DNA of 64,000 bases from Pseudomonadota bacterium (GCA_043820105.1 JBDREC010000030.1:2888-66887); one strand, 5' to 3'. Shown: positions 29,709 through 60,631, numbered from the stretch's first letter. The notes: generated by a model from the sequence alone, not told the origin. A program made the numbers and translations.

Positions 29709-29911
29709 GTGGTAAGTTGTAAGTGGTAAGTAGAGCAAGTTTTTTCCTGTGGAATCAATTTTAGCTCATTTTATTTCAATTTTCTTAATTATAATTATAA
29801 TCTTTATCCTTAAATTAGTTAGTAAATTAAACGACTTATCTCTATTTTTAAAAAATGGCACATCTATTGCATTTATTATCTTAAAAGTATTTTCAAGTAT
29901 AAGGAATAATA

Positions 29912-30250
29912 ATGAAGACTGGGAAACAAATGATAAAATTTATTCTGATTATAGCGATATTAAGACTTTCAGTTTTTATGCTAATTGGTTGTGGGTCAGA
30001 AATAGACCAATCAATTGATGCAGCTTATCTTATGTACCCAAGTCAATGCTATGTTGATCAAGCTGAATTTGCAAACGCTTCTGAAATCATTTCTCAAACA
30101 ACAAGATTTAAAGTATCAGAAATCACGTTAACAGCAGAAATTGATGAGGATGAAGATGGAATATACGACGAGTGTCAAAATTACAAACAAAGCAATCAAG
30201 CCCAAGTCATTTCAATCCAAGACGAAGAAATCGAAACTTTTCAAAACTAA
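29912..30250 (+). CDS. Small acidic lipoprotein, hypothetical
   Basis: Lipobox LIGCGS. 112 aa. Confidence 0.45.
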   Translation: MKTGKQMIKFILIIAILRLSVFMLIGCGSEIDQSIDAAYLMYPSQCYVDQAEFANASEIISQTTRFKVSEITLTAEIDEDEDGIYDECQNYKQSNQAQVISIQDEEIETFQN

Positions 30251-30479: not shown

Positions 30480-32219
30480 TTAGTACTCAGTATCTAGTCC
30501 GTAAATATGCAAAATATCACTTTTAGAAACGATTCCAATAAGTTTTTTGGTATCTTCTCTATCTACAATTGGAATAGTGTGCACATGATTCTCGTGCATT
30601 GTGTGCATTAGGAATTCAAGTGATTGGTCGGGATGGGCATGGATTGATAAGTCTCTGTTTGCTATCTTTGCAATCTTTTTTTGATAATGATGCTTAACAA
30701 ATTCCTCTTTTATTTTATCTGAACTAACCATTCCTAAAAGATCCCCAAATCTATCTAAAACTGGATAATATGAAAATTTCAAGTCAAAGTCTTTTGTAGC
30801 TACTACAACACTTAGATCATAGTTCATTGATTCAAAATGAATATTCATTGCATCTTCTGCTACAAAATGTTTTAGCTCTTCCTCTTGCTCATGAGAAGGG
30901 ATGTGACAGCCATCTTGCATTGAAAGGGCATTATATATTGGAACTTTGTGAAATTTTTGGCTAATAGCATATGAGATGAGGTTTGATATCATCAGGGGTA
31001 AAATAATTGAATAATCATGAGTCATTTCAAAAATAATTATTACAGAAGTCATAGGAGCTCTGATTATTCCTGAAAAAACTGCACCCATTCCAACAAGAGC
31101 ATAAGCTCCTGGACTCGCGACAAATCCTGGCGCAATTATTTGAAAAAGGTAACCCATAAATCCACCAAGCATGGCACCAATAAATAAGGATGGAGCAAAA
31201 ATTCCACCTGCTGTGCCAGTTGAATATGAAACAACAGTTGCAAAAACCTTCATTATTAACAAAAGAACTACCATGTAAAAAACAAGATTACCGTTTAATA
31301 CATCTTCAACAGTATCATAACCAATACCCATAATCTTAGGACTAACCAAAGCCATCAGACCAATACAAAGCCCACCAATCATTGGTTGCAAGGGTAGAGA
31401 CCAAACAGGCAAGCGTAGTTTTAATAATTTTCTAATTCCCAAAAGTGCATTAATAAAGAAAAGTGAAACAAAGCCAGCCGCGATTCCTAAGACAAGATAG
31501 AAACCAAATTCCCAAACACTAATTAAAGCATAAGGTGGAACTTCAAAAATAGGGTGGTTACCTAAAATTGATCTTTCTACTGCCGCAGCAGCAACAGCAG
31601 CAAGGACAGCTGAACCCAATATTTTTGTATTAAAGTTACCAACGATTTCTTCTATTGTAAATGTAACTGCAGCTAGCGGTGTATTAAAAGCAGCAGCTAA
31701 ACCAGCAGCTGCTCCCACTGGAACCAAAGCCTTTATTTTTTCAGCAGATAAATAAAAAGTCTTTCCGATAAAGGAAGCTAGACCGCCTGTAATATATACA
31801 GTAGGACCCTCGCGGCCAACAGAGCTTCCAGTTCCAATGCTAAGGGCTGATAAGAAAAATTTAGCTATTGTATTTTTAATGCTCATTCTTCCACATCGCG
31901 CAAACAATGACGCTTTAAGCTGAGGAATACCAGAACCTCTTGCTTGTGGAAAAAAGAAATGCAGCAAAACCCCACAGACTAAGCAACCTAAAGTTGGAGT
32001 CAAAATTAATTTCAAATAAGCAGTATTAGAAGCGTTTTTTAATTCAAAAACATTATTAAATAAATATTCTATAAGCATATGAAAGGAAACAGCAACAAGT
32101 CCGCAAACAGCACCAATAACAATGGTTATTAGAAAAAAGAACTTGTCTTCAGATAAACCAAGCTTATGTATATATTTAATTATGTAATTTTGTAGGCTGT
32201 ACCATCTGCGCCAAGCCAT
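30480..32219 (-). CDS. ClC-family chloride channel / H+-Cl- antiporter with C-terminal CBS pair
   Basis: Selectivity motifs GSGIPQ, GREGP and GIFAPSLFIGA. C-terminal CBS-like region. Confidence 0.85.
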   Translation of the reverse strand: MAWRRWYSLQNYIIKYIHKLGLSEDKFFFLITIVIGAVCGLVAVSFHMLIEYLFNNVFELKNASNTAYLKLILTPTLGCLVCGVLLHFFFPQARGSGIPQLKASLFARCGRMSIKNTIAKFFLSALSIGTGSSVGREGPTVYITGGLASFIGKTFYLSAEKIKALVPVGAAAGLAAAFNTPLAAVTFTIEEIVGNFNTKILGSAVLAAVAAAAVERSILGNHPIFEVPPYALISVWEFGFYLVLGIAAGFVSLFFINALLGIRKLLKLRLPVWSLPLQPMIGGLCIGLMALVSPKIMGIGYDTVEDVLNGNLVFYMVVLLLIMKVFATVVSYSTGTAGGIFAPSLFIGAMLGGFMGYLFQIIAPGFVASPGAYALVGMGAVFSGIIRAPMTSVIIIFEMTHDYSIILPLMISNLISYAISQKFHKVPIYNALSMQDGCHIPSHEQEEELKHFVAEDAMNIHFESMNYDLSVVVATKDFDLKFSYYPVLDRFGDLLGMVSSDKIKEEFVKHHYQKKIAKIANRDLSIHAHPDQSLEFLMHTMHENHVHTIPIVDREDTKKLIGIVSKSDILHIYGLDTEY

Positions 32220-32321: not shown

Positions 32322-32729
32322 TTATAAAAAAGTTTTGTATCCCACATTAAGTATCTTTTCGAGGCGTTTTGCCATAGATTTGCCAATAGGTCTTTTTCCA
32401 TTTTCCATTTTTGATATATTGCTTTGCAAAACTCCTAGCTTTTTAGCTAATTCCAATTGACTTAAACCCTCTTTGAGTCTTGCTCCTTTTATAAATGTCC
32501 CCTTATTTTCTAAAACAGAATCATCAAATGCCTCTTTCCAAGGAATTGATTTTTCATAGCTTGATGACTTTAAATTATGAAATTCTTCTAAAAGTTTAAT
32601 GATAATTTTTAATATGCCAGAAGTAACTTGAAACTTTTTCCTTTCTTTGTTTGGAAAATGAACAACAATGTAAGGAGTATTTTTCTTAATAAGGTGCTTT
32701 CTCTCTTGTACCAACATAATATACCTCAA
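32322..32729 (-). CDS. HTH (XRE-family) antitoxin, HigA-like
   Basis: C-terminal helix-turn-helix LSQLELAKKLGVLQSNISKMENGKRPI. Overlaps the 3' end of the upstream toxin ORF. Confidence 0.65.
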   Translation of the reverse strand: MRYIMLVQERKHLIKKNTPYIVVHFPNKERKKFQVTSGILKIIIKLLEEFHNLKSSSYEKSIPWKEAFDDSVLENKGTFIKGARLKEGLSQLELAKKLGVLQSNISKMENGKRPIGKSMAKRLEKILNVGYKTFL

Positions 32730-33048
32730 TTATTTTAATTTTTTTGTCTATTAATTCCCAACAAACAACGTAGCTTGGTTTTCCTTTTTTAGTAATATGA
32801 CAATGATGTTTGTTTTCACTCAGCTTACTATAATTTGGCCAATTACCTCTAACAGGACCATAGTTTTCCATTTCCTTGAACAGTGTAGAAAGAAGAAACT
32901 GTATTTTATGGGGCAATCTTGGCATCCTTTTTTTCACTGAATTCTTTAGAAAAACCTCCCAATTTATTCTTCCATTATATGTCATTTTTAGACCTATGTC
33001 AAATATATATTGACATATTAATATTGCAATTTTAAGACCAAAAAACAA
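32686..33048 (-). CDS. RelE/ParE-superfamily toxin (HigB/YafQ-like)
   Basis: C-terminal pattern HHCHITKKGKPSYVVCWELIDKKIKIIEVYYVGTREKAPY. Toxin-first order with a downstream HTH antitoxin. The true start is probably the internal MTYNG at 32986. Confidence 0.6.
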   Translation of the reverse strand: MFFGLKIAILICQYIFDIGLKMTYNGRINWEVFLKNSVKKRMPRLPHKIQFLLSTLFKEMENYGPVRGNWPNYSKLSENKHHCHITKKGKPSYVVCWELIDKKIKIIEVYYVGTREKAPY

Positions 33049-33183
33049 GAATCACTAATATGCATTTCATTTCTTAGACTTAGCCTTTATGAGCCTAAAT
33101 AAAAAGCTTTGAATTCTTATGTTTTCTAGAAATTGGAAGAAATAATGGGAACCTCAAGTTTTTTTAATTATTACTTTACTAAA

Positions 33184-33330
33184 AATCACAAATCACAATA
33201 TCCAAATTACAAGCAAATTACAAATTCAGAAAAACAATAATAAAAACAAAATCTAATTTGTACTTCTTCTTTTTGGTCATTTGGACATTGTAATTTGTGT
33301 ATTGTTTGTAACTTGTTATTTGTTTATTGG
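33184..33330. repeat. Two opposed heptamer arrays (AATCACA-type and its complement ATTTGTG-type) forming a ~150-bp imperfect palindrome
   Basis: AAATCACAAATCACAATATCCAAATTACAAGCAAATTACAAATTC at 33184-33235, and GACATTGTAATTTGTGTATTGTTTGTAACTTGTTATTTGTTTATTGG at 33285-33330. Confidence 0.75.
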
Positions 33331-33423
33331 AATTTATATCCTTTGTTTAACAAATTAAACACATCTGGGCTATCAGCTATCAGCAAGAAAAAATTAAAGG
33401 CAGATAGCTTTTTGCTATTTATA

Positions 33424-33933
33424 TTAGTCTTCTTGATTTATGAGTATTGATCCATCCTTGTATGCATCGCCTCCACCTGCCAAATCTCTTTTAATCAATT
33501 GCCAATATTTCGATTTTATTCCATCATCATCTAAATCTTGTTGTATTACTATTAAACAGGCTGTTGTTGGATCTAAAATATCTTCTTCACACTCAACTTT
33601 AGCGCCACCATATGTATCTTGGTCTGGAACAAAACCAATTATTTTAAATCCATTTGTATCGCCTGCAAATGCTGCCTGAGAACCTGCTTGCTTATCTCCG
33701 TTTAATAAATTTACATCCATTGTTGGCATTCCAAGTGGAATATGATGAAATTTTGCATTATCAATATTGTAGTCAGCTTCAGCAGCAAATATGCCGTTTA
33801 TAAGTGCGTTAACTTCTGACTTTTTAGACTTCTTGATATAAGCCATAAAACTTGGGATTGCGATTGCTGCCAAGATGCCGATAATGGCAACAACAATTAT
33901 TAGTTCAACTAGTGTAAAGCCTTTCTTTTTCAT
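33424..33933 (-). CDS. Type IV pilin / pseudopilin (prepilin N-terminal cleavage-methylation domain)
   Basis: [29 protein letters not shown], the canonical class III signal. No other pil genes nearby. Confidence 0.8.
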
Positions 33934-34067
33934 TTTTTTCTCCTCTTTGTTATTAATGAAACAAGCTTGTAGATAATACTAGCAACTTTCATGCCAAAAA
34001 TAGCAATATTATAACTAATTGATTTCATTGAAACGCGAAAATAGAAAATCCTTGTAAAAAGCAAAAA

Positions 34068-34106
34068 GTGACAAAATTTGTCACGTGACATGACAAAATT
34101 TGTCAC
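34068..34106. promoter_or_regulatory. Two adjacent copies of the 17-bp perfect palindrome GTGACAAAATTTGTCAC
   Basis: Read directly in the pilin-upstream / hipA-downstream spacer. Further copies lie at 34153-34169 and 35999-36015. Confidence 0.6.
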
Positions 34107-34152
34107 TCGATTTTTAAGCTGCTGTTATCATTGATTGAATGCGCCGCAGCAA

Positions 34153-34169
34153 GGTGACGAAATTTGTCA
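34153..34169. promoter_or_regulatory. Third palindrome copy (GTGACGAAATTTGTCAC), part of the conserved module palindrome-CTCTAAnnGTGTT-G tract
   Basis: A similar module is found at 35999-36050. Confidence 0.6.
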
Positions 34170-34192
34170 CTTCTCTAATAGTGTTAGTTTCC

Positions 34193-34218
34193 AGGGGGGG
34201 GGGGGGGGGGGCGGGGGG
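34193..34218. repeat. Homopolymeric tract G19-C-G6
   Basis: Counted directly. Extremely atypical for this AT-rich DNA. The paralogous module at 36038-36044 has only G7. Confidence 0.9.
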
Positions 34219-34265
34219 TTATATTAAAAGAATGTCCTAGTAATCTGTTTTATTGATTGTTTTTA

Positions 34266-35510
34266 TTATTTTTTGCTAAAGAGCTTTTTAGCAACTTTTT
34301 GGTGATACTCTATAATATGCTTAATATCTCTATCAAAAAGATCAAGACTTTTTGCAAGTTTTTTAAATTGAGATATCGCACTTCTAACTTCATCTATTAT
34401 TGCTTTTTTATCATATTCTGAAATTTGAAAAAGTTTAGCCAGGTGATCAAGTTCTCTTATTGAAGGATTTTTTCCTTCACCTGCAATTGTCATTGAATGT
34501 TCACCACCCATGCCTTGTGAAAACATTAAATCATAAGCTGGAGCAAAAGACCAAGTTCCGTTTTTATTCATTAAAAAAGCAAAGTTTTTCACATGATCAT
34601 CCCTGTTAGAGGACAAAATGTTAAAAACCATTAATCTATAGCACATTTTAACTGATTCAAAATCATGTGTAAGTTTTGAGCAAACCTTTAAAAGGGTTTC
34701 ATAATCAACAGATGGCACCCTAAAATCAGCGTGTATTAAATTTCCAAAAGAGTGAAAATGAATTCTTTGATTTCCTTTTCTGTCAAATCTTTTAGTTCCA
34801 AAATAATAATTATTTTTATTATCTTGAAACAAGTGATATTCTGGAATTATAATGCCAGCAGCTTCTGCCATTTGTGAATAAATATACTCTATTTTTCCAG
34901 CTTCTAAAAAGTCGTTTTCAGATCTAAATTTTATCATCCATGCTTCATAATTTTTTGGTAGATCTGACTCTTTTGAAATTAAATCTTTACCATTAAATCC
35001 TACAAGAATTTTGGGTCTGGCTCCACCTGGAGATCCGCCAGTTCTAAAAAGGATGGGCAAAATATCTTTTTCATTTCCTTTTAAAATTTCAATTGAATTT
35101 TGAGAAAGCTCATATAGATTTACTGTTTCATTCTTTTTAAGTTTTAAATCCATAGCTGGTTCATAAGTTAAAGCCCCTATAGTCCTGTTAGCTACAAATA
35201 ACAATCTATCAATATGAGAAATTTCTCTTAAATCCAAGCCTTGTTTATTAAAAAAACGATCTTGTAATAAAAGCCCCCAACCATCTGGCATAGAATCATT
35301 AAATACACCATGAATATAACCTAAGAATGCTTTTTTACATACCTGAAGTCCCATACGACAATCAAGTTTGAATGGTGAAATGTTTATGTTTTTTGAAAGA
35401 AAATTTGAATCATATTCAAAATAAATTCTTTTTTTATTATCCTGAACAATTTGTCCCAATAGTGTCGAATCATTGGAAGAGGTAGTGTAGAAAACCTTTA
35501 CTTTTTTCAT
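34266..35510 (-). CDS. hipA: HipA-family Ser/Thr kinase toxin
   Basis: The N-terminal HipA coupling domain motif (PDGWGLLLQDRFF) and the catalytic region (DDHVKNFAFLM) are both present. 4-nt overlap with the upstream hipB-like gene. Confidence 0.8.
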   Translation of the reverse strand: MKKVKVFYTTSSNDSTLLGQIVQDNKKRIYFEYDSNFLSKNINISPFKLDCRMGLQVCKKAFLGYIHGVFNDSMPDGWGLLLQDRFFNKQGLDLREISHIDRLLFVANRTIGALTYEPAMDLKLKKNETVNLYELSQNSIEILKGNEKDILPILFRTGGSPGGARPKILVGFNGKDLISKESDLPKNYEAWMIKFRSENDFLEAGKIEYIYSQMAEAAGIIIPEYHLFQDNKNNYYFGTKRFDRKGNQRIHFHSFGNLIHADFRVPSVDYETLLKVCSKLTHDFESVKMCYRLMVFNILSSNRDDHVKNFAFLMNKNGTWSFAPAYDLMFSQGMGGEHSMTIAGEGKNPSIRELDHLAKLFQISEYDKKAIIDEVRSAISQFKKLAKSLDLFDRDIKHIIEYHQKVAKKLFSKK

Positions 35511-35815
35511 AATCTTCCTCTTTTTTTCATTTTAATTTTTTCCAGTTTTTCAATATCTTTAATTGATTTTGTTTCAATTTCAGGAAAAAGACACAAGAAA
35601 TCTTCCAAACAATTCAATGCACTAGCAATTTTCAATAAGGATTCAAAAGAAATTTTCCCTGTTAATTCAAATCTTTTAAGGCTTGCTTCAGTAACATTGG
35701 ATTTTTTGGCCAAGGTGCTGCGTTTAAGGTTATGCTGCAAACGCAGGATTTTAGCTTTTTGAGAGACCTTTTTCATTAGCTCAAAGGGAGTATATATATT
35801 AATTTTATGGCTCAT
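35507..35815 (-). CDS. hipB: HipB-like HTH (XRE) antitoxin
   Basis: HTH LKRSTLAKKSNVTEASLKRFE. Translationally coupled to hipA. Confidence 0.7.
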   Translation of the reverse strand: MSHKINIYTPFELMKKVSQKAKILRLQHNLKRSTLAKKSNVTEASLKRFELTGKISFESLLKIASALNCLEDFLCLFPEIETKSIKDIEKLEKIKMKKRGRL

Positions 35816-35998
35816 ATATTAATCTTTGCAAGGCTTAAATGGTATTAATAGATATTATATTGTCTATTATCAGGAATGTCAAGAGTGAATTGGAAAGTTT
35901 TTTCTGTCTTCAATTAATTATTAGTTTATTAATCTTCAGTGTCAGTATTGATATTCCCAGAAAGATAAGCATTAAAACATGACAATTTTTGCCATAGG

Positions 35999-36050
35999 GT
36001 GACAAATTTTGTCACTACTCTAAGGGTGTTTATTCGAGGGGGGGAGGTGC
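35999..36050. promoter_or_regulatory. Fourth palindrome copy plus CTCTAAGGGTGTTTATTCGAG-G7 module
   Basis: GTGACAAATTTTGTCAC followed by a sequence paralogous to 34170-34218. Lies between the hepT stop and the hipB promoter region. Confidence 0.6.
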
Positions 36051-36051
36051 G

Positions 36052-36420
36052 TTATATGGAAATCAGCCTTTTGAAGCTCTTAAGATACAAAGGAAGTTTA
36101 TCATATAATTCATTTGCAAGTTTTTCTTTATACATATGTGCAATCTGATTTCTAGCATCTGTTATTTCCAGCCAAATTTCATCATATTCAAGTAATTCTT
36201 GTTTATATGCTTCTCTAAAAGTTGCTTTAGGAGAATTGGATATTATTCCATGAATATCTTCAAGATATGTTTTTAGCATTTTCCATGAAAGATCAAAGGT
36301 GAATTCAAAACGTTGAATAGCTGAATCTCGCATATATTCAGTTTTATCCTGTTTTAAAACATCATCCAGTCTATTAACAGCTTTGTTTAGCTGTTGTTTA
36401 ATTGCTTCAAGTTTAGTCAT
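36052..36420 (-). CDS. hepT: HepT-like toxin (nucleotidyltransferase substrate-binding protein, HI0074 family / DUF86)
   Basis: 122 aa with the family pattern ...RDSAIQRFEFTFDLSWKMLK...; paired with the upstream MNT gene by an 8-nt overlap. Confidence 0.7.
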   Translation of the reverse strand: MTKLEAIKQQLNKAVNRLDDVLKQDKTEYMRDSAIQRFEFTFDLSWKMLKTYLEDIHGIISNSPKATFREAYKQELLEYDEIWLEITDARNQIAHMYKEKLANELYDKLPLYLKSFKRLISI

Positions 36421-36730
36421 TTATTTTTATTTCCTCTATATTTTGCATTGCTACTTTTTTAAACTCTTCTGAAACTTGTGTAAAATCAACAAGCTCTATT
36501 TTATATAAATAGGGAAGGTTTTCAATATCTTCTTTTATTTTTTCCATTTTTTCTATTGGAATTTGTAAAGTGCCTAAAAGTCCAACATCAATATCTGACC
36601 TTTCTGAACCTTTGCCAGAAACCCTTGAACCAAAGTAAAAGACTCTAAATTCTTCTAAATTTAAGTGCTTTCCTAGAATTTGAATAATATTTGATGTCAA
36701 TTTATTTTTATTACAATTTTTAAAATTCAT
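36413..36730 (-). CDS. mntA: MNT-type nucleotidyltransferase antitoxin (HI0073 family)
   Basis: GSRVSGKGSERSDIDVGLL, the minimal nucleotidyltransferase motif. Confidence 0.7.
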   Translation of the reverse strand: MNFKNCNKNKLTSNIIQILGKHLNLEEFRVFYFGSRVSGKGSERSDIDVGLLGTLQIPIEKMEKIKEDIENLPYLYKIELVDFTQVSEEFKKVAMQNIEEIKIND

Positions 36731-36900
36731 TCTATCTACAATTTTTATTTATATAAATATTCAAATGATAGTATATTAAGATAAAAAATTAATTCAAATG
36801 TTAAATTTCTTTTTTTTCTATATACATAATTCTAATTTTATTTAATGATATTCAAAATTAAATGATTAAGAGTTAGGATTATGATGAAGATTAGGATTTT

Positions 36901-38838
36901 TTAAATTATTATCCTTGATTTTGTTTGTTTGCCTAAAGATTCAATCATAACTTCAGTCATCAATTTTGAAAATTTTGCTGGATCTTTTATGTTTGAGCCT
37001 TCTGTTAATAATGCTTGATCAAAAATGAGTTCACAATAATTTTTAAGCTTTTCATCCTCTTTGTTTTGAGAATAAAGGTCATTCATTGCTTCAATTAAAA
37101 TGTGATCTGCATTGAGTTCTAGGATTCTTTTTGATTTTGGAGCAGCTTGCCCTGTTGCTTTTAAAATTCTTTCCATATTTGCAGTTGGATCATCTTTATC
37201 TGAAACTAAACAAGCAACTGAGTCAGTAAGCCTTGTTGAAAATTTCACATCTTTAACATGTTCACTTAATTCTTCTTTCATAAATGCTAGCAAAGAATCA
37301 AATTTTTCTTTTGCCTTTTCAGTAGATTCTTTTTCATTTTCATCTAGGCTTACATCAGTTTTTAAAACTGACTTGAATTCTTTTTCCTTATATTTATCAA
37401 AATTTCCCAAAACAAACTCATCAACATGATCAACAAAATATAAAACCTCAATATCTTTTTTCTTAAAGGCTTCTAGATGAGGGGAGTTTTGAATTGTTTC
37501 AATATTGTCACCTGTAATATAATAAATCTCCTTTTGATCTTCTTTCATGTTTTTCACATAAGTTTCAAGTGAGATCAATTCATCAGATTTTGTTGATTTA
37601 AATAAAACTAGGTCCATTAGCTTTTCTTTATTTGGCATATCTGAATAGATACCTTCTTTTATTAAAAGACCAAATTCAGTAAAAAAGCCTTTATATTTAT
37701 CAAATTCTTTTTCTTTCATTTTAGTTAAGGACTCTAGCACCTTTTTTGTTAGGTGTGATCTAATGGAAGCAACACGTCTGTCATTTTGAAGCATTTCTCT
37801 TGATACATTTAAAGACAAGTCAGAGGCATCAACAAGGCCTTTAACAAATCTTAAATAAGAGGGTAGTAAATCTTTGCAGTCATCCATAATTAATATTTTT
37901 TTAACATATAGATTAATCAATGAATCGCGATCTGAAAAAGAAAAATGAAATGGCTTTTTAGAAGGAATAAATAAAAGTGCTTTATATTCAAGCCTACCTT
38001 CAGCTGATAAATGGATTGTATCAAGGGGCTTTTCCCAGTCATGACTTATATGCTTATAAAATTCATCATATTCTTCTTGTTTAATTTCACTTTTGTTTCT
38101 TGCCCAAATTGCTTCTTTTGAATTTAATGTTTCTTTTTCAATTTTCTTTGTTGTGATTTCTTTTCCATCTTCGCCTTTTGATGTTTCTTCTTTTTCAACA
38201 TTCATTGTAATAGGATAAGAAATAAAGTCAGAATGTTTTTTAATAATTGATCTGATTTTCCAATCGTCTGTGTAATCGTCTTCATTATCTTTTTTACTTT
38301 TTAGATCCAAAATGACTGTTGTGCCAACAGAATCTTTTTCCCAATCTTCAACAGTAAAAGATCCATCGCCTTTTGATTCCCATTTATAAGCTTTTTCAGA
38401 ATCAACGTGTTTTGTAATAATTGTAACAAGCTTTGAAACCATGAAAGCTGAATAAAAACCAACTCCAAATTGACCAATTAATTCAATTGGAAGGTCTTTT
38501 CTGTTTTCTAAAAGTTTAACAAACTCTTCAGAACCGGATTTGGCAATTGTACCGATTTTATCAATGAGCTCTTCCTTGGTCATTCCAATACCATTATCAG
38601 TGATCATAAGTCTTTTATTTTTCTTGTCTGCTTCAATAAAAATCTCAAATTCTTCCCTATCTTTTTTAGCATTTTTATCTGTTAATGACCTGAATCTAAG
38701 CTTATCAATAGCATCAGATGCATTTGAAATTAGCTCTCTTAAAAATATTTCTTTTTCAGAATATAAAGAATTAATAACAATATCTAATAATTTTTGTGTT
38801 TCAGCTTTAAATTGGAAGTTTTCAATATTTGGGCTCAT
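36901..38838 (-). CDS. htpG: Chaperone HtpG (Hsp90)
   Basis: N-terminal GHKL ATPase motifs (LRELISNASDAIDKLRF, ITDNGIGMT, GQFGVGFYSAF). 645 aa. Confidence 0.9.
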   Translation of the reverse strand: MSPNIENFQFKAETQKLLDIVINSLYSEKEIFLRELISNASDAIDKLRFRSLTDKNAKKDREEFEIFIEADKKNKRLMITDNGIGMTKEELIDKIGTIAKSGSEEFVKLLENRKDLPIELIGQFGVGFYSAFMVSKLVTIITKHVDSEKAYKWESKGDGSFTVEDWEKDSVGTTVILDLKSKKDNEDDYTDDWKIRSIIKKHSDFISYPITMNVEKEETSKGEDGKEITTKKIEKETLNSKEAIWARNKSEIKQEEYDEFYKHISHDWEKPLDTIHLSAEGRLEYKALLFIPSKKPFHFSFSDRDSLINLYVKKILIMDDCKDLLPSYLRFVKGLVDASDLSLNVSREMLQNDRRVASIRSHLTKKVLESLTKMKEKEFDKYKGFFTEFGLLIKEGIYSDMPNKEKLMDLVLFKSTKSDELISLETYVKNMKEDQKEIYYITGDNIETIQNSPHLEAFKKKDIEVLYFVDHVDEFVLGNFDKYKEKEFKSVLKTDVSLDENEKESTEKAKEKFDSLLAFMKEELSEHVKDVKFSTRLTDSVACLVSDKDDPTANMERILKATGQAAPKSKRILELNADHILIEAMNDLYSQNKEDEKLKNYCELIFDQALLTEGSNIKDPAKFSKLMTEVMIESLGKQTKSRIII

Positions 38839-43803: not shown

Positions 43804-43980
43804 GTTTATTAATTTAAAATAATTCGCGACATTCAATACACAAGCAGTTAATTGCAACAAAAATATTGCCCCAAATTATCATTTAATTACATGTATTTAA
43901 AAAACGACCAAGCCATTGCCACGTGGCATCATTTTTGCATGCTTATTTTGCTAAATTTATTTTTCATTATAGGGCATTTT

Positions 43981-46900
43981 ATGAGACTAATTACTTTTTC
44001 ACTAAAGATAAAAAACTGTTTTTCTTATTTCTTAATTATAGCTGTTCAATTTTTGTTTATATTAGAATTAAGTTTATATGCTTCTTCAGAAAACTGTATG
44101 AGGCTTTTTTCAGATGAAAGAATTATTTCAACCCAAGATAGCCAGCAAGTAAATAAAGAAACCGCACAACAAGCATCTGCTAACTCACAAAGAAATTCTG
44201 CTAAAGATAAAATCATTTTTTCAATTAATGCTCCAAAGAGTATTTCGAATAAAGTAGAACTAGCTTCTGAAATGTTAGAAAGAGAAATGCAGGCAAATTA
44301 TGGATCATACTCATCAGAGCACCCAGTATTTAAATATGTTGAATCCATTTTAAAGGATATCTTTGCAGGTCTTGATGGAAAGCCTTTCAAGTTAATAGTA
44401 ACGAAAGGATGGGAAGAAGTAAATGCATGTGTTTTAGGCAATGGAACAATTATTTTTTCAGACAGATTACTAACTTTTTGTGAAACTGTAGAAGAGCTTC
44501 ATTTTATTTTAAGTCACGAAGTAATACATGCAAAAAAGCATCTCAAAGAATATGAAGACAAACAGGATACAACAGTTGGAACACTCTTAAAAGACTTCTA
44601 TCAAAACCTGTTTAGGGATAGAATGCAAGAGTATGAAGCAGATATTAGAGGTTTTACAGAAGGGTCGGGTTCAAGTGATTCAATTATTAATCCTTATGGA
44701 GGGATTGTTTTTTTTAATCGCTTAATGGAAATTGAAAGATCTTCTAAAAGCAAATATAATCGCAGCTTTAATTATGGTCTTACTCATGGTAGAAGTGCAG
44801 ATAGGCTTTTAAACCTTCACTTTGCAACAAGATTAGTTGATATTGACAATCTCTCAAGAGATTTGACTGTAATTCCTGATGAAATAAGAGACAAACTAGA
44901 TTTTCGAAGGTCTTTAGAAAAAGAAATATTGAAACCATTGGAAGTTAAATCAGGAGAAGATCTAAGTAATATTATTTCTGCAAGAGAAGCAGCTTTGGAA
45001 AAAGCTAATTTTTATATATTAAAAAATGCAGTGTCCATTTTATATAAGAGATATATGGATAAATATTCATCAAGGAGAACTGCCAGTGATAGTGATAATT
45101 TTTTAGAACCAATTGAAAAAGAGTTTTTACTTAAAACTCTTAATGCCTTTAAAAAAGAAATCGATATAATTTTAGAAGAAAAAAAGGTTCCAGTTTTTTT
45201 AAGGCCCTTATTCCGTGGAATAATAATTGCTTTAAGTTCTGATTTGCCAATAGAAGATGCAAGACCAATGCTTGATGGCTCTGACCCGGAAAATGCATTA
45301 GCCTGTTTTAGAGATTTTTTTGATTATTTTGAAGATAAGGCTGACTACCTTGATTTGCCTGATAATTTGGAAGAATTTGCAAAACTTGATTTGCCTCTTA
45401 CAAATAAACCAAAAGAACTCCTGCAATTTTTGATAAATGAATCTTTAGATGAGGAAATTTTTAGTGATAATCAGGGCAATTTTGACCTTGGACTATATAG
45501 AGACTATGTGCGCAGGCTAAGTGAGTCAACAAAGAAACTTTATGATAAAGTTGGATTAACTAAAGATATAGATTCAAATATGCTTTATGCAGAACTTTTG
45601 CCTTATGCTTTATTAAACTATTCAAGAGATGAAATGAATCAAGTTGCCCAGGATCTTATCTTAGATGTTGGTGAAAATATGAATGATTTTTATGAAGCAG
45701 CCAGAAAGGATGTGGAAATTCCCGAGAAAGTATTAGATAAAGCAAAAAAGAATTTAGAGGAAAGTGATAATAAAAAAGATATATCACCAAAAAGAAAAGA
45801 GTTTTTGGATATAGCAATGGAATACCTTAATAGCTTTAGAGACTTTATAAAGAATCCTCCAGAGGAATTTGAATCAGAATTTATAGCGGAATCTGCTTTT
45901 ATTGAAAATCATAGCAAAACATTTATAAGTAAAATAGATTCATTTGCATGGAAAACTCAAGAAGAAGTAATTATAGCATTAACAAAATTATTCAGAGAAG
46001 ATCTCAATAAAGAAGACATTAGAAAAGTTGTAAAGCTAATATTTGAATGCCCGGACTTTTTCTCAAGTAAAAGATCTTATATTGATGAGAATATGAGTCC
46101 AGTAGGTAAGGCTGCATTTTTAGTTAGAATATTAAGATTCTGTTTTGATTTTGATGAGTTTGGCTCCCTTGTTGGACACAAGGCTTCAATTCCAGATTTT
46201 CTTAACAATGGTTTTAGCTTTACTAGCAGATGGGAATATATTGATAAAAGAACAAATAATGCAGAAATTAAAGAACTCTATAAAATGCTTTTTCATAATA
46301 TAGAATCTATTAATGATCTTAAAGCTACAGAAACAAAAAAAGACGAAGCAATAGAAGATTCATATAATCAAATATATTTTGCTTATTTAGATTACTTGAG
46401 CAAAGAAAAAAATATAGAAGAGTTTAGAATATTATTTGATGATATAATAGATATTGCTCCTAGAAATAGCACTGAGTTTTTAGAATTTCAATTAACAGCA
46501 GCAGCATCTATTTTTGAAAATTATGATTTTGATTTTTCTAATCCTGAGCATTTAGACCTTTATATAAAAGCATGTTCTTTGGTTCCAGATAGTGTACTTG
46601 CTTCGCAGTTAGTTGAAAATGGTCTGGAAAAAGCTTTTGATTATCTGGATAACAAAACACTTGAAAATTATTTATTTCAAGATGAAAGGCTTGCTTTTTT
46701 ATCATTAACAAAAATTAGATCTAGATACATAAATGAGCGTATCCGATCAGTTGAACATCTTGACAGAGCTTTAGAAAAAATCGCCTCAGCCTCTATTCCA
46801 AAACAGCAATCAATACAAGAAAGGGGAGGCAAAGCTTTAATAGGAAATGAAATATTGGATATCTTAATTAATGACCCATTTAATTTTCTCAAAATCGCAA

Positions 46901-48675
46901 TTTTTGAAAGACATTCAGACATGAAGCTTAAAACAGCCTTACTAAATGCCTATCTTTTTTATGTTGAAAATATTGTGCATTTGGGTGGTAACCCTGCAGA
47001 CAGAAGAACAGAAGAAGATTTTATTGGTTTTGCAAGCCATTATGAAAGAATGTTTTCTTTAGATAATGTCACAAAACATAATATTTTAAAAAAATTATTA
47101 ATTGGAGAAAATGGTGTCTTAAGAAATGAAAGTAAGAAGCTAGAAATGCTTGAGCTTATATTGGAAGTTCTAGTCAGAGAAGGAAAAACAGATGCAGAGA
47201 GCAGGCTACGCTCAATATTGAGCATTGGTTTAAAATCCATTGCAATGCAGGCAGATGATATTTCATTATATTTTTTCATAGCAAACTTTTTACATGATCA
47301 AATGTTTATAAGACCTGAAAGTGAAAGCTCTTGGGTTGATGTACTGATTGAATCAGATGTTTTCAAAGATTATAGCAGAGAGTATTACAAAAAAGAAGAA
47401 CTTGAAGAACTTGCTAAACCAATTGCCAATGCTATTAGTAGCTCTCCAAGTGCTAAACATGACAGTTATATTTTTTATGAAGGATCTAGTCCAAATTTAG
47501 ATCTTTTAAGAAGAAATCTTTTTGATAAAGCTTCAAGATACTTGCCAAGCATAGAAGGAGGTGAAAAGAAAAATTACTCGCCAGTTGAATTCATTGTTGA
47601 AGTAGCAAGCAACTTATATGCACCAGGTAAAAGAGCATTACAAATAATGGGACAATATCTAGAGATCCCTGAAGAGTTTGAAGAAGATTTTTCAAAGGTC
47701 TATGATGCAATGGAAGGTCAGTCTAAGTTATCAGGCTATCACACCTTGAAAAGAAACTGGGAAGGTTCAGAAGAAGAGCTTCTTGATTTTGGTTTATATG
47801 AAGGGGGTGGCTCTTTGGTAACAGTGTGGAAGGCAGAAACAAAAAGAAATGGTACTGAAGTTTTAAGAGTGCTAAACCCTAATGTAGAATATCACATGCA
47901 AGAGATATGTGATATTTTAGAAGAAGCTTTTAGGAAGCTAGAAGCAGAATATCCTGATGCAAGACTTGCAGTACTTGCAGTTAATGATATAAGAGAGTGG
48001 ATAAGACGAGATATTAATGACCAAAACTTTTGGGATAATGATGTAATTTTTCATGATTTACACCATGGGTTTTCTGCACCTGGTTCTGGGTTTAGTATTT
48101 ATATCCCAAAGTCTTATGAACCAAGATCTGCTAAAGTAAAAAGAGAAGAATATATTGAGGGCATAAATCTAACAAGATGGCAAGGCACAGAAGAAGAAAG
48201 AAAAGATATAGTAAGTTCAATTGTAGTAAATTTTATTTATCAAATTGGAAATGGCTTAGTTTTATCTGATATTCATCCCGGTAATATTAGAATTATGAAT
48301 GGCAATAAAATTGCCTATCTTGACAGGAATCTTTATATTGAAATCACAGGAGCAGAAAAGGACTTATTATCATCTGTTATAACTGGACAAGAATTAATAA
48401 TTATTGATACTTTTACTTCATATTTACAGGAAATACCTGAAAACAGAAACATTAATGTTCAGGCAATCCTTGAAAATGCAGTCTTAGCATCTTCAAACAT
48501 TAATGACCCAACAAAAAGATTTTTAGATATCCTGGTAAAGGTAAAATCTTCAAATATCAAAGTACCCTTAAAAATTACCTTATTAATTAAAAATGCTTTA
48601 GCTCTAAATAAAATGTCTAAAAAAGCAGGCTTTAATAGTTTAGTTGAAGCAGCAATGTATCCACATACAAGATAG
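43981..48675 (+). CDS. Giant membrane-anchored multidomain protein: M48-like HExxH peptidase domain, long helical region, C-terminal UbiB/ABC1-like atypical kinase domain
   Basis: N-terminal hydrophobic helices. VNACVLGNGTIIFSDRLL...ELHFILSHEVIHAKKH is the M48/M56 pattern. The C-terminus has a Gly-rich loop EGGGSLVTVWKAE, DIHPGNIRI (compare ABC1 DPHPGNI) and a YLDRN DFG-like motif. Start moved to the Met at 43981 (MRLITFSL). Confidence 0.65.
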   Translation: MRLITFSLKIKNCFSYFLIIAVQFLFILELSLYASSENCMRLFSDERIISTQDSQQVNKETAQQASANSQRNSAKDKIIFSINAPKSISNKVELASEMLEREMQANYGSYSSEHPVFKYVESILKDIFAGLDGKPFKLIVTKGWEEVNACVLGNGTIIFSDRLLTFCETVEELHFILSHEVIHAKKHLKEYEDKQDTTVGTLLKDFYQNLFRDRMQEYEADIRGFTEGSGSSDSIINPYGGIVFFNRLMEIERSSKSKYNRSFNYGLTHGRSADRLLNLHFATRLVDIDNLSRDLTVIPDEIRDKLDFRRSLEKEILKPLEVKSGEDLSNIISAREAALEKANFYILKNAVSILYKRYMDKYSSRRTASDSDNFLEPIEKEFLLKTLNAFKKEIDIILEEKKVPVFLRPLFRGIIIALSSDLPIEDARPMLDGSDPENALACFRDFFDYFEDKADYLDLPDNLEEFAKLDLPLTNKPKELLQFLINESLDEEIFSDNQGNFDLGLYRDYVRRLSESTKKLYDKVGLTKDIDSNMLYAELLPYALLNYSRDEMNQVAQDLILDVGENMNDFYEAARKDVEIPEKVLDKAKKNLEESDNKKDISPKRKEFLDIAMEYLNSFRDFIKNPPEEFESEFIAESAFIENHSKTFISKIDSFAWKTQEEVIIALTKLFREDLNKEDIRKVVKLIFECPDFFSSKRSYIDENMSPVGKAAFLVRILRFCFDFDEFGSLVGHKASIPDFLNNGFSFTSRWEYIDKRTNNAEIKELYKMLFHNIESINDLKATETKKDEAIEDSYNQIYFAYLDYLSKEKNIEEFRILFDDIIDIAPRNSTEFLEFQLTAAASIFENYDFDFSNPEHLDLYIKACSLVPDSVLASQLVENGLEKAFDYLDNKTLENYLFQDERLAFLSLTKIRSRYINERIRSVEHLDRALEKIASASIPKQQSIQERGGKALIGNEILDILINDPFNFLKIAIFERHSDMKLKTALLNAYLFYVENIVHLGGNPADRRTEEDFIGFASHYERMFSLDNVTKHNILKKLLIGENGVLRNESKKLEMLELILEVLVREGKTDAESRLRSILSIGLKSIAMQADDISLYFFIANFLHDQMFIRPESESSWVDVLIESDVFKDYSREYYKKEELEELAKPIANAISSSPSAKHDSYIFYEGSSPNLDLLRRNLFDKASRYLPSIEGGEKKNYSPVEFIVEVASNLYAPGKRALQIMGQYLEIPEEFEEDFSKVYDAMEGQSKLSGYHTLKRNWEGSEEELLDFGLYEGGGSLVTVWKAETKRNGTEVLRVLNPNVEYHMQEICDILEEAFRKLEAEYPDARLAVLAVNDIREWIRRDINDQNFWDNDVIFHDLHHGFSAPGSGFSIYIPKSYEPRSAKVKREEYIEGINLTRWQGTEEERKDIVSSIVVNFIYQIGNGLVLSDIHPGNIRIMNGNKIAYLDRNLYIEITGAEKDLLSSVITGQELIIIDTFTSYLQEIPENRNINVQAILENAVLASSNINDPTKRFLDILVKVKSSNIKVPLKITLLIKNALALNKMSKKAGFNSLVEAAMYPHTR

Positions 48676-53469: not shown

Positions 53470-54378
53470 TTACGCTTTTGGGTGTGTCCTATCATATTCT
53501 TCAATCAACTTATTAACACTTACTTTAGTATAACGTTGAGTTGTGGATAACATTGAATGTCCCAAAAGCTCTTGAATACTTCTTAAGTCAACCCCTGAAT
53601 CTAAAAGATGAGTTGCAAAGGTGTGTCTAAAAACGTGAGGTGTAACTTTTTTTTGGATTCCATTTCTTTTTAAATACTTATCAATTATTCTTGAAATTCC
53701 TTTTTGAGAAATTCTATTTTTACTTTTATTCAAAAATAAAGGTTTAGAATCATTGGAAACAGAATTATAATCAATACCTACAATATCAAGATATCTTGTC
53801 ATTGCAAACTTTGCTTTATTTCCAAATAAGACGATTCTTTCTTTGTTACCTTTACCAATTAATCGAATACATTTATCATTAAAATCTACATTACTTGTAT
53901 TTAACGAAACAAGCTCACTTACTCTCACACCAGATGCGTATAAAAGTTCAAGTATAGCTCGATCTCTTAATTCTTGCCATGAATCACCATTTGCTGATTC
54001 GATTAAAGTGAATACCTCATCAACTGACATAGTTAATGGTAGATATTTTTTTCTTTTAGGTGTAGCAACATTTTTTGCAATATTTTCTTTTACCTTACCT
54101 TCCGTTTTCATGTAAGTCATAAAGCTTCTTAAGCTTGCTATTTTCCTTGCTAAAGTTGTGCTTGAATTTTTGTTATATAAATAAGCTAAAAAAGCTCTGA
54201 TATGTTGAACTGAAATTATATTTAAATCAAAGGGATCATTAAATGATTTAAGAATTTTTTGCTCAAGTAAGAATCTTGAAAAATCTTCTAAGTCATTTGA
54301 ATAGTTCCTTAGTGTATGACTTGAATAGTGTTTAACATTTTTTAAATATTCAATGAAATCTTTGATATGCTTTTTCAT
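53470..54378 (-). CDS. xerC: Tyrosine recombinase XerC/CodV
   Basis: C-terminal catalytic box HVFRHTFATHLLDSGVDLRSIQELLGHSMLSTTQRYTKV. Sits upstream of hslVU as in the Bacillus codVWX arrangement. Confidence 0.85.
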   Translation of the reverse strand: MKKHIKDFIEYLKNVKHYSSHTLRNYSNDLEDFSRFLLEQKILKSFNDPFDLNIISVQHIRAFLAYLYNKNSSTTLARKIASLRSFMTYMKTEGKVKENIAKNVATPKRKKYLPLTMSVDEVFTLIESANGDSWQELRDRAILELLYASGVRVSELVSLNTSNVDFNDKCIRLIGKGNKERIVLFGNKAKFAMTRYLDIVGIDYNSVSNDSKPLFLNKSKNRISQKGISRIIDKYLKRNGIQKKVTPHVFRHTFATHLLDSGVDLRSIQELLGHSMLSTTQRYTKVSVNKLIEEYDRTHPKA

Positions 54379-59847: not shown

Positions 59848-59858
59848 AAAAGCTTTTT

Positions 59859-59929
59859 TCTGGGCTCGTTCAATGGTAGGACAACAGACTCTGACTCTGT
59901 TTATCGGGGTTCGAATCCTCGGCCCAGAG
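59859..59929 (+). tRNA. tRNA-Gln (anticodon CUG)
   Basis: Manual fold. Acceptor TCTGGGC/GCCCAGA with a U1-A72 pair typical of bacterial tRNA-Gln. D-stem GTTC/GGAC. Anticodon stem ACAGA/TCTGT with loop CTCTGAC. T-arm CGGGG-TTCGAAT-CCTCG. No encoded CCA. T-run follows. Confidence 0.75.
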
Positions 59930-59951
59930 TTTTTTCTATTGGATACATAAG

Positions 59952-60473
59952 ATGACCAAAATCGACTTAATCAAATCTGATATCACAAAACTCAAAATTG
60001 ATGCTATAGTTAATGCAGCCAACAATTCTTTACTTGGCGGTGGTGGTGTTGATGGAGCTATTCATAGAACAGCTGGTCCAGAATTGCTGGAGGAATGCAA
60101 AACTCTTGGAGGTTGTAATACAGGCGATGCCAAAATCACTAAGGCCTATAATCTTCCCTGTAAATATGTTATCCATACCGTAGGGCCTGTATGGAAAGCT
60201 GGAAAAAATAATGAAGAAAAACTCCTGGCTTCTTGTTATAAAAACTGTCTGGATCTTGCCAATCAATATAAAATTAAAACAATAGCTTTCCCATGCATAA
60301 GTACTGGAGTTTATCTGTTTCCTAAAGAAAAGGCTTGCAAAATTGCTATATTCCAAACTTTAGATTTCATAAAAAACAAACCCCTTATTGAGAAAATTAT
60401 TTTTTGTTGTTTTTCTGATAAAGATTATAATATCTATAAAACATTAGCATTTTTTAATATTGACGGAAATTAA
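59952..60473 (+). CDS. Macro-domain protein (O-acetyl-ADP-ribose deacetylase, YmdB-like)
   Basis: [25 protein letters not shown] and the Gly-rich loops of the macro fold. 173 aa. Confidence 0.85.
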
Positions 60474-60495
60474 TTTTTATAACAGATTTTTTACA

Positions 60496-60540
60496 GGAGA
60501 GATGGCTGAGCTGGCCGAAAGCGTCCGACTCGAAATCGGA
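60496..60540 (+). pseudogene. 5' fragment of a tRNA-Ser (anticodon CGA): acceptor 5' strand, class-II D-arm and complete anticodon arm only
   Basis: GGAGAGA-TG-GCTGAGCTGGCCGAAAGC-G-TCCGA-CTCGAAA-TCGGA. No variable-arm stem, T-arm (GGTTCGAATCC-like) or acceptor 3' strand in the next 150 nt. Confidence 0.5.
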
Positions 60541-60631
60541 TAGGTGGTATTTCATGCGAATAAATTGACATGAATTTGCCAATATAATAGATTACTGTTC
60601 TCTTTATAAATTCTACAAGTAAGGGTTAATT

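Follow-up and report, generated by a model that had tools for sequence, protein, structure and literature searches.

Pilin promoter with predicted sigma-54 dependence and dyad enhancer sites among three toxin–antitoxin modules between ClC channel and htpG genes

PilR and sigma-54 activate pilA, and the published hallmarks of PilR sites are TGT-N11-AGA and GTCT elements (PMC6058289); the NtrC-like protein NmpR binds GCGCA-N5-TGCGC upstream of sigma-54 promoters (PMC11841059). Among toxin–antitoxin (TA) systems, the closest described relatives of the genes considered here are HigB2/HigA2 of Vibrio cholerae, HipBA of Escherichia coli and Shewanella, and pairs of a HEPN protein and a minimal nucleotidyltransferase (MNT). 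Here we describe a locus of 4.4 kb in which three such TA modules and a type IV prepilin gene lie side by side, between the genes for a ClC channel and HtpG, in a 64-kb stretch of DNA (referred to throughout as the window) from the metagenome-assembled genome of a Pseudomonadota bacterium (GCA_043820105.1, JBDREC010000030.1:2888-66887) belonging to an uncultured, deeply branching lineage.

A first-pass annotation of the window had taken this locus for a mobile or recombinationally assembled defence and persistence island, punctuated by shared repeats. The locus is a cluster of known kinds of genes and not a demonstrable mobile island. We consider it fairly probable that it is a stretch of core chromosome with four independent transcription units: a RelE-fold TA module, a sigma-54 pilin gene with dyad enhancers, hipBA, and an MNT/HI0074 pair. 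The conspicuous palindromes that had suggested punctuation are most likely enhancer sites of the pilin gene.

The pilin gene and the palindromes upstream of it

The putative sigma-54 promoter (Table 1) lies 48–63 nt upstream of the pilin ATG, and matches of such quality number three in the window against 0.17 expected. Beyond it stands a series of 17-bp palindromes, GTGACAAAWTTTGTCAC, which occur with at most one mismatch at 34068, 34090, 34154 and 35999 and as a degenerate copy at 35979, and are absent from the rest of the 64 kb (10 strand-matches against 0.41 expected). The three nearest to the pilin gene have their centres 94, 116 and 180 nt upstream of its -12 element, with distances of 22 and 64 nt (about two and six helical turns) from one site to the next.

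The same arrangement is found on two metagenome contigs, L123 and L124, whose pilins are 42% identical to the window pilin, are flanked by gcvP and an amino-acid kinase gene and have no TA genes near them. Both pilins are preceded by this dyad, as GTGACAAAATTTGTCAT and GTGACAATTTTTGTCAG, and by a sigma-54 promoter, and when the upstream DNA is aligned, dyad and -24/-12 elements stay as conserved blocks in otherwise diverged sequence. When up to two mismatches were allowed, these were the only two of 127 loci (1.6 Mb) to carry the dyad. Because the same dyad and promoter precede pilins on contigs free of TA genes, and because NtrC-family activators bind such dyads and PilR with sigma-54 is classical for pilA, the palindromes are best read as predicted enhancer sites of the pilin promoter, serving an activator of the NtrC/PilR type. 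The pilin would be transcribed from the sigma-54 promoter, which such an activator may turn on by binding the GTGACAAAWTTTGTCAC dyads 94–180 nt upstream. The earlier view of repeats as punctuation shared by the TA modules is contradicted by these TA-free pilin loci, and also by a 69%-identical hipBA pair elsewhere, beside which no such palindrome stands. Sigma-54 dependence with a conserved dyad is thus predicted for at least the window pilin and two relatives.

The pilin leaders of L123 and L124 (about 190 nt) also contain a conserved short upstream open reading frame (ORF; L123 1745-1810, L124 1185-1250) with a strong Shine-Dalgarno sequence, GGAGGAGGT. Its product is MRKAHFILRPP* in L123 and MKKLNQTVLRPP* in L124, with the common ending R-P-P-stop, which resembles known ribosome-arrest motifs, and the ORF is followed in both by a conserved hairpin, GGGAACA..GTTCCCA. 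The window pilin has a short leader and no such upstream ORF. The other two 11/12 sigma-54 matches in the window are likewise intergenic: that at 29856-29871 (plus strand) is upstream of a co-oriented gene for a small putative lipoprotein at 29912, and that at 26636-26621 (minus strand) is upstream of a co-oriented gene for a 620-aa protein at 26535. These two matches suggest a broad use of sigma-54 in this organism.

The pilin itself carries a class III prepilin signal peptide (MKKKG/FTLVE, with G at -1, F at +1 and E at +5, as read from the ORF translation) and an N-terminus that matches those of solved major type IV pilins. A protein search returned 20 further pilins, 51–75% identical to that of the window, which hardly differ over their first 60 residues and in a QDLDDD motif and vary in the remainder. 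Since their accessions and those of the window genes fall into one NCBI series (MFH1726925-MFH1729930), these are paralogues within one metagenome-assembled genome, which holds 21 such pilin genes in total. There are no further pilin copies or fragments in the window. The gene, first described as standalone, is no orphan: it is a member of a resident family and not the cargo of an island.

Downstream of the pilin gene, the A/T-rich hairpin built of heptamer repeats (detected by TRF) has arms of 24 nt that are 88% complementary, and its predicted fold has a free energy of -37.1 kcal/mol (z = -4.6). It is a candidate terminator or insulator, and probably terminates the pilin transcript.

The three toxin–antitoxin modules

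An ORF map, with seven minus-strand ORFs at 32322-36730, and scans with family hidden Markov models (HMMs) agree with the gene positions, the strand and the ClC and htpG flanks given by the first-pass annotation (NCBI accessions from ClC to HtpG, MFH1727800-808). Its count of three unrelated TA modules and a prepilin gene within 4.4 kb also stands, on the combined evidence of HMMs, of Foldseek and of a homologous toxin–antitoxin pair on another contig (L125). The HMMs back the assignment of hipBA and of the MNT/HI0074 pair strongly and give no match for the RelE-like ORF, an outcome that, read to the letter, is one of those named in the first-pass annotation as refuting it. PADLOC returned only weak generic matches, and neither an Rfam scan nor a tRNA scan found anything within the locus.

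The product of hipA matches both domains expected of a HipA-family kinase, HipA_C (E = 1.6e-46, 159.1 bits, cut-off 30.5) and Couple_hipA (E = 3.9e-11, 43.8 bits, cut-off 22.5), and its catalytic-loop motifs DDHVKNF and PAYDL align with those of solved HipT(Lp). It is therefore a predicted kinase toxin in which the catalytic motifs are kept. The hipB gene is upstream and overlaps hipA by 4 nt. The same pair, a gene for a 102-aa helix-turn-helix (HTH) protein and hipA, is found at two further loci, L126 and L127, where hipBA is 69% identical and the promoter block CTTGACAT...ATATAATATC is also present. In the window, hipBA would be transcribed from its own consensus sigma-70 promoter, with a dyad across the -10 hexamer. 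The accession number of a second HipA paralogue of this genome, MFH1727921, does not adjoin that of any pilin.

The third module begins with the MNT gene, which shares 8 nt with the HEPN gene behind it. The HEPN protein scores 103.8 bits with NTase_sub_bind (cut-off 31.8) and 96.4 bits with TIGR01987 (cut-off 55.8), has the motif R90-x4-H95-x-Y97 in the form R90-NQIA-H95, and matches TTHA0048 (1.4e-27), the HEPN toxin 8xdj (1e-12) and HI0074 (2.4e-5) in the PDB. The nucleotidyltransferase scores 39.9 bits with Polbeta (cut-off 26.9), matches HI0073 (PDB 1no5, 4e-7) and has the motif G34-S35...D46-I-D48 (both motifs read from ORF translations). With the NCBIfam equivalog models, for which the cut-off is 60, the pair reaches only 18.9 bits (HepT_toxin) and 36.6 bits (MntA_antitoxin). 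Because these scores are under both cut-offs, the pair is assigned by sequence to the HI0074/HI0073 branch of HEPN–MNT systems and not to the Shewanella HepT/MntA branch. As in a type VII pair, the nucleotidyltransferase would be expected to neutralise the HEPN RNase.

Module 1 is of a less familiar kind. Its toxin and antitoxin genes overlap by 32 nt, and the antitoxin has a C-terminal XRE-type HTH and an N-terminal region with no match to known families; its start is probably at 32717, in agreement with the NCBI protein MFH1727801 (131 aa). The toxin ORF has no match in Pfam, NCBIfam or PADLOC, even at E <= 10, and a ParE-like HMM gave a weak match (0.0072) in one of 52 homologues; a profile search reached archaeal RelE (1wmi) at E = 0.011, also weakly. 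An AF2 model (pLDDT 91.4, pTM 0.82) was compared with the PDB using Foldseek, where the top 26 matches were all RelE, YafQ, YoeB, HigB2 or ParE toxins, 25 of them with a probability of at least 0.89. A 55%-identical homologue on the unrelated contig L125 is likewise followed by an overlapping HTH_3 partner. We therefore assign the RelE-like ORF and its HTH neighbour, from modelled fold and gene context and not from HMM support, to a predicted RelE-fold TA module whose genes are ordered as in HigB2/HigA2, and the toxin is by its fold a predicted relative of ribosome-dependent mRNA interferases.

An exhaustive search yielded 377 homologous clusters of this toxin, about 90–100 aa in length, in whose alignment H-C-H and a C-terminal YVGTxExAPY are conserved (H62, C63, H64, Y91, E96 and Y100 in the window protein). 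The subfamily is outside the coverage of Pfam, NCBIfam and PADLOC, so that current HMM libraries miss a group of RelE-fold toxins with several hundred sequence clusters. An inverted repeat over the candidate promoter of the module is probably for autoregulation. The toxin start at 32988 is backed by homologues, and is so in conflict with the sigma-70 match at 32974-33002.

Table 1. Positions of genes and sequence elements at the locus and its borders (lengths in amino acids are those of the products)
Feature	Position	Strand	Evidence or remark
ClC channel gene	30480-32219		border gene
Module 1 antitoxin, 131 aa	32322..32717	-	HTH_3 E = 7e-13, residues 76-126
Module 1 toxin, 100 aa, RelE/YafQ/YoeB-type fold (predicted)	32686..32988	-	AF2 model, Foldseek, gene context
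Module 1 promoter candidate, sigma-70 12/12	33002-32974	-	consensus match
Module 1 operator candidate ATGTCAA-N7-TTGACAT	32995-33015		includes -35 hexamer; read from sequence
A/T-rich long hairpin of ~7-nt repeats, then U run	33187..33299	-	downstream of pilin gene
Type IVa-like prepilin gene, 169 aa	33424..33933	-	N_methyl E = 6.6e-9, 35.4 bits (cut-off 21.2)
Pilin sigma-54 promoter (putative) TGGCATGAAAGTTGCT	33996-33981	-	11/12 consensus positions, GG-N10-GC core
Three 17-bp dyads GTGACAAAWTTYGTCAC	34068-34084, 34090-34106, 34154-34170	.	candidate NtrC/PilR-type enhancer sites
50-nt unit, copy A (C tract, 22 nt, dyad)	34153-34203		34203-34153 in minus-strand order; extended to 34218 by homopolymer
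hipA, HipA-family Ser/Thr kinase toxin (predicted), 414 aa	34266..35510	-	HipA_C, Couple_hipA; NCBI MFH1727804
hipB, HTH antitoxin, 102 aa	35507..35815	-	HTH_3 E = 7e-7
hipBA dyad TAATAGA-N10-TCTATTA	35869-35846	-	spans -10 hexamer; read from sequence
hipBA promoter (putative), sigma-70 12/12	35882-35854	-	consensus match
50-nt unit, copy B (C7 tract, 22 nt, dyad 35999-36015)	35998-36047		36047-35998 in minus-strand order; degenerate dyad at 35979-35995
HI0074-family HEPN protein, 122 aa, presumed toxin	36052..36420	-	NTase_sub_bind, TIGR01987
Minimal nucleotidyltransferase, 105 aa, presumed antitoxin	36413..36730	-	Polbeta E = 4.7e-10
htpG	36901-38838		border gene

Repeats, composition and the history of the locus

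The palindromes, the G tracts and the heptamer inverted repeat noted at first are real, and were located and counted in the window, but they do not punctuate the whole locus: related repeats occupy only two of its five spacers, those between pilin gene and hipA and between hipB and the HI0074 gene. In these two spacers stand the copies of a 50-nt unit, which together form a direct repeat bracketing hipBA. A local alignment of the copies scores 51, compared to 19.7 +/- 2.4 in shuffles (54 compared to 23.6 +/- 3.9 with longer flanks), and there is no significant homology past the unit, nor does any reach the 3' end of hipA or that of the HI0074 gene. Elsewhere in the locus, a 19-nt tandem repeat, ATGATGAAGAGTTAGGATT, is present in two copies at 36862-36898, directly downstream of the htpG stop and in the spacer to the MNT gene.

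Runs of seven or more G occur in the window only within or adjoining the two copies, at 34194-34218 (25 nt) and 36038-36044. The longer is extreme for surrounding DNA of about 30% GC and has a single interruption (G18 C G6), and the source is a metagenome assembly, all of which might point to a tract that is in part an artefact of sequencing or assembly (the poly-G of two-colour chemistry) and has a length other than the genomic one. We consider this rather unlikely, as the alignment of the units crosses the tract boundary and the second copy holds a homologous 7-nt tract at the same place; because of that second tract, some of the longer one is real, its length being uncertain.

The 50-nt duplication suggests, on sequence grounds, a scar of local rearrangement. 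Since hipBA in L126 and L127 shares the promoter block and is found without the unit, the transferable hipBA unit would begin with the -35 hexamer and end with the hipA stop, while the repeat would belong to the recipient DNA. A local rearrangement may have placed hipBA with its promoter within or beside the pilin upstream region, either by insertion with duplication or by replacement of one unit in a former tandem pilin array. Of the original proposal of recombinational assembly, the part that stands is this direct repeat around hipBA; its mobile-island part is unsupported. On L124, a 39-aa N-terminal pilin fragment with an N_methyl match (829-948) ends directly at the 17-bp dyad that belongs to the following pilin gene, and has the look of a scar left by deletion or recombination in an array of pilins. 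Because this truncated fragment abuts a dyad, breakpoints do occur there.

We regard as improbable the reading of all 4.4 kb as a defence and persistence island, mobile or acquired horizontally, that was inserted between ClC and htpG. In its favour are the three TA modules side by side, and HipA shares 54–57% identity with proteins that carry the annotation Victivallales or Kiritimatiellae, two lineages of the PVC group, a similarity suggestive of lateral exchange of the module. Against it, there is no tRNA gene at the borders, there are no repeats flanking the whole locus, and the window contains no integrase or transposase, the only such gene being that for an XerC-like tyrosine recombinase (53470-54378), 17 kb off and beside hslVU, with housekeeping genes for the rest. 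Composition is host-like in all seven genes: relative to 33 host genes taken as reference (GC 0.33 +/- 0.03, GC at third codon positions, GC3, 0.22 +/- 0.03), the genes of the locus have GC of 0.26–0.35, GC3 of 0.17–0.27 and codon-usage z scores of -1.1 to +2.6 (positive values being nearer host usage). The pilin, moreover, comes from a family resident in this genome. Synteny offers little to compare: the closest HtpG from outside this genome, in genome contigs, metagenome contigs and a set of 5.8 billion proteins, is 52–54% identical, and the neighbourhoods of three distant htpG genes are unlike the window and unlike one another. One htpG, 54% identical (L122 3376-4630), also lies beside a cluster of small genes including one for a HicA toxin, which is probably coincidence.

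Since the similarity of HipA to PVC-group proteins is as high as HtpG reaches with any genome, individual TA modules probably came laterally. Lateral transfer is the usual behaviour of TA genes, and is no proof of an element that moves en bloc.

We would give little credence to a more general scheme in which the 21 full-length paralogues, with their nearly identical first 60 residues, are variable pilins of one large family that recombines, each with a sigma-54 promoter and a common dyad enhancer, and the C-tract-plus-dyad unit is a recurrent junction for the capture of foreign modules like hipBA or for pilin loss. If this were true, a variable homopolymer tract could add phase variation.

It is very unlikely that the 50-nt unit is a site for site-specific recombination marking exchangeable cassettes, in the manner of integron attC sites or of the dif modules of Acinetobacter plasmids, which are bounded by Xer sites and include TA genes. 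The unit does follow directly after two toxin genes and form a direct repeat around hipBA, and the truncated pilin fragment of L124 does end at a dyad. However, there are two copies only, with none after module 1 or the pilin gene, there is no recombinase gene nearby, and the hipBA of L126 and L127 is without the unit; the fixed distance of the dyad from sigma-54 promoters is a better fit to regulation. An integron array was rejected since there is no integrase, inspection revealed no attC core sites (RYYYAAC/GTTRRRY), and the unit follows only two of the four units; dif modules were rejected for the missing recombinase and because no 11-6-11 dif-like architecture was seen on inspection. The idea that the 17-bp palindromes are operators of an HTH antitoxin (HipB or that of module 1), both being XRE-type and so palindrome binders, with dyads on both sides of hipBA, is extremely unlikely and was rejected, as the dyads are 100–130 nt upstream of the hipBA -35 hexamer and not over the promoter, each TA promoter has a different dyad of its own, and the palindrome is kept at TA-free pilin loci and absent from the conserved hipBA promoter elsewhere.

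We therefore return to four transcription units, with the palindromes as predicted pilin enhancers, against which several points must be weighed. L123 and L124 are orthologous and from one sample, so that they amount to about one independent comparison, and within this genome dyad and promoter were read at the window locus, one of 21 pilin loci. Among the ORFs scanned in the 64 kb there is no gene for an NtrC-family activator, for sigma-54 or for pilus assembly (pilBCD, pilMNOPQ); assembly genes may lie elsewhere in the genome. The 50-nt unit is more than an activator site, as its C tract and its TTAGAG block are absent from L123 and L124. Finally, in module 1 the toxin ATG (32988) falls within the 12/12 sigma-70 match, at odds with a simple promoter model.

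Two regions elsewhere in the window were noted in passing. At 59858-60606, a Macro-domain gene (59952-60473) stands between tRNA-Gln (59858-59930) and a 111-nt tRNA-like Rfam match, which is at exactly the gathering score (29.0 bits) and has no ARAGORN call. An ORF of 1607 aa (43852-48675) has a weak M48 peptidase match near its N-terminus and an ABC1 atypical kinase domain near its C-terminus, most of the protein being without a family match.

Comparison with known systems

The understanding of TA systems and of pili is unchanged by these results, and each of the four units has a recognisable counterpart. The upstream region of the pilin gene resembles the PilR/sigma-54 pilA promoters of Pseudomonas aeruginosa, Myxococcus xanthus and Geobacter in its putative -24/-12 promoter and in having repeated dyads 90–200 nt upstream. 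The 6-N5-6 geometry of the dyad is like that of the NmpR site, GCGCA-N5-TGCGC (PMC11841059), and its sequence differs from the TGT-N11-AGA and GTCT elements of published PilR sites (PMC6058289). In contrast to systems with a single pilA, there is no pilS/pilR nearby and the window gene is one of 21 paralogues.

The hipBA module is similar to HipBA of E. coli and Shewanella in the upstream HTH gene that overlaps the kinase gene, in the N-terminal coupling and C-terminal kinase domains with their catalytic-loop motifs, and in a sigma-70-type promoter crossed by a dyad. It is distant from solved HipA proteins, the HipT(Lp)/HipA_C structures alone giving a sequence match (about 1e-11), and is far below the cut-off of the NCBIfam YjjJ model. 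Module 3 shares with the type VII HepT-MntA systems, with HI0073/HI0074 of Haemophilus influenzae and with TTHA0048 an MNT gene that comes first and overlaps the HEPN gene, the Rx4H motif with a tyrosine two residues on, and GS...DxD, and it passes the HI0074 family models; it differs from the characterised Shewanella HepT/MntA in scoring beneath both equivalog cut-offs.

Module 1 is like HigB2/HigA2 of V. cholerae in having the toxin gene first, overlapping genes, an inverted repeat at the putative promoter, and an antitoxin with its XRE-type HTH at the C-terminus, behind an N-terminal part that is not an HTH. The modelled fold of its toxin is similar to that of HigB2 and of the RelE, YafQ and YoeB mRNA interferases (Foldseek probability 1.0, query-normalised TM-score 0.53–0.69). 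It is 6–22% identical in sequence to solved toxins and escapes detection by Pfam, NCBIfam and PADLOC, and it has conserved features of its own in the H-C-H and in a C-terminal GTxExAPY that ends in tyrosine.

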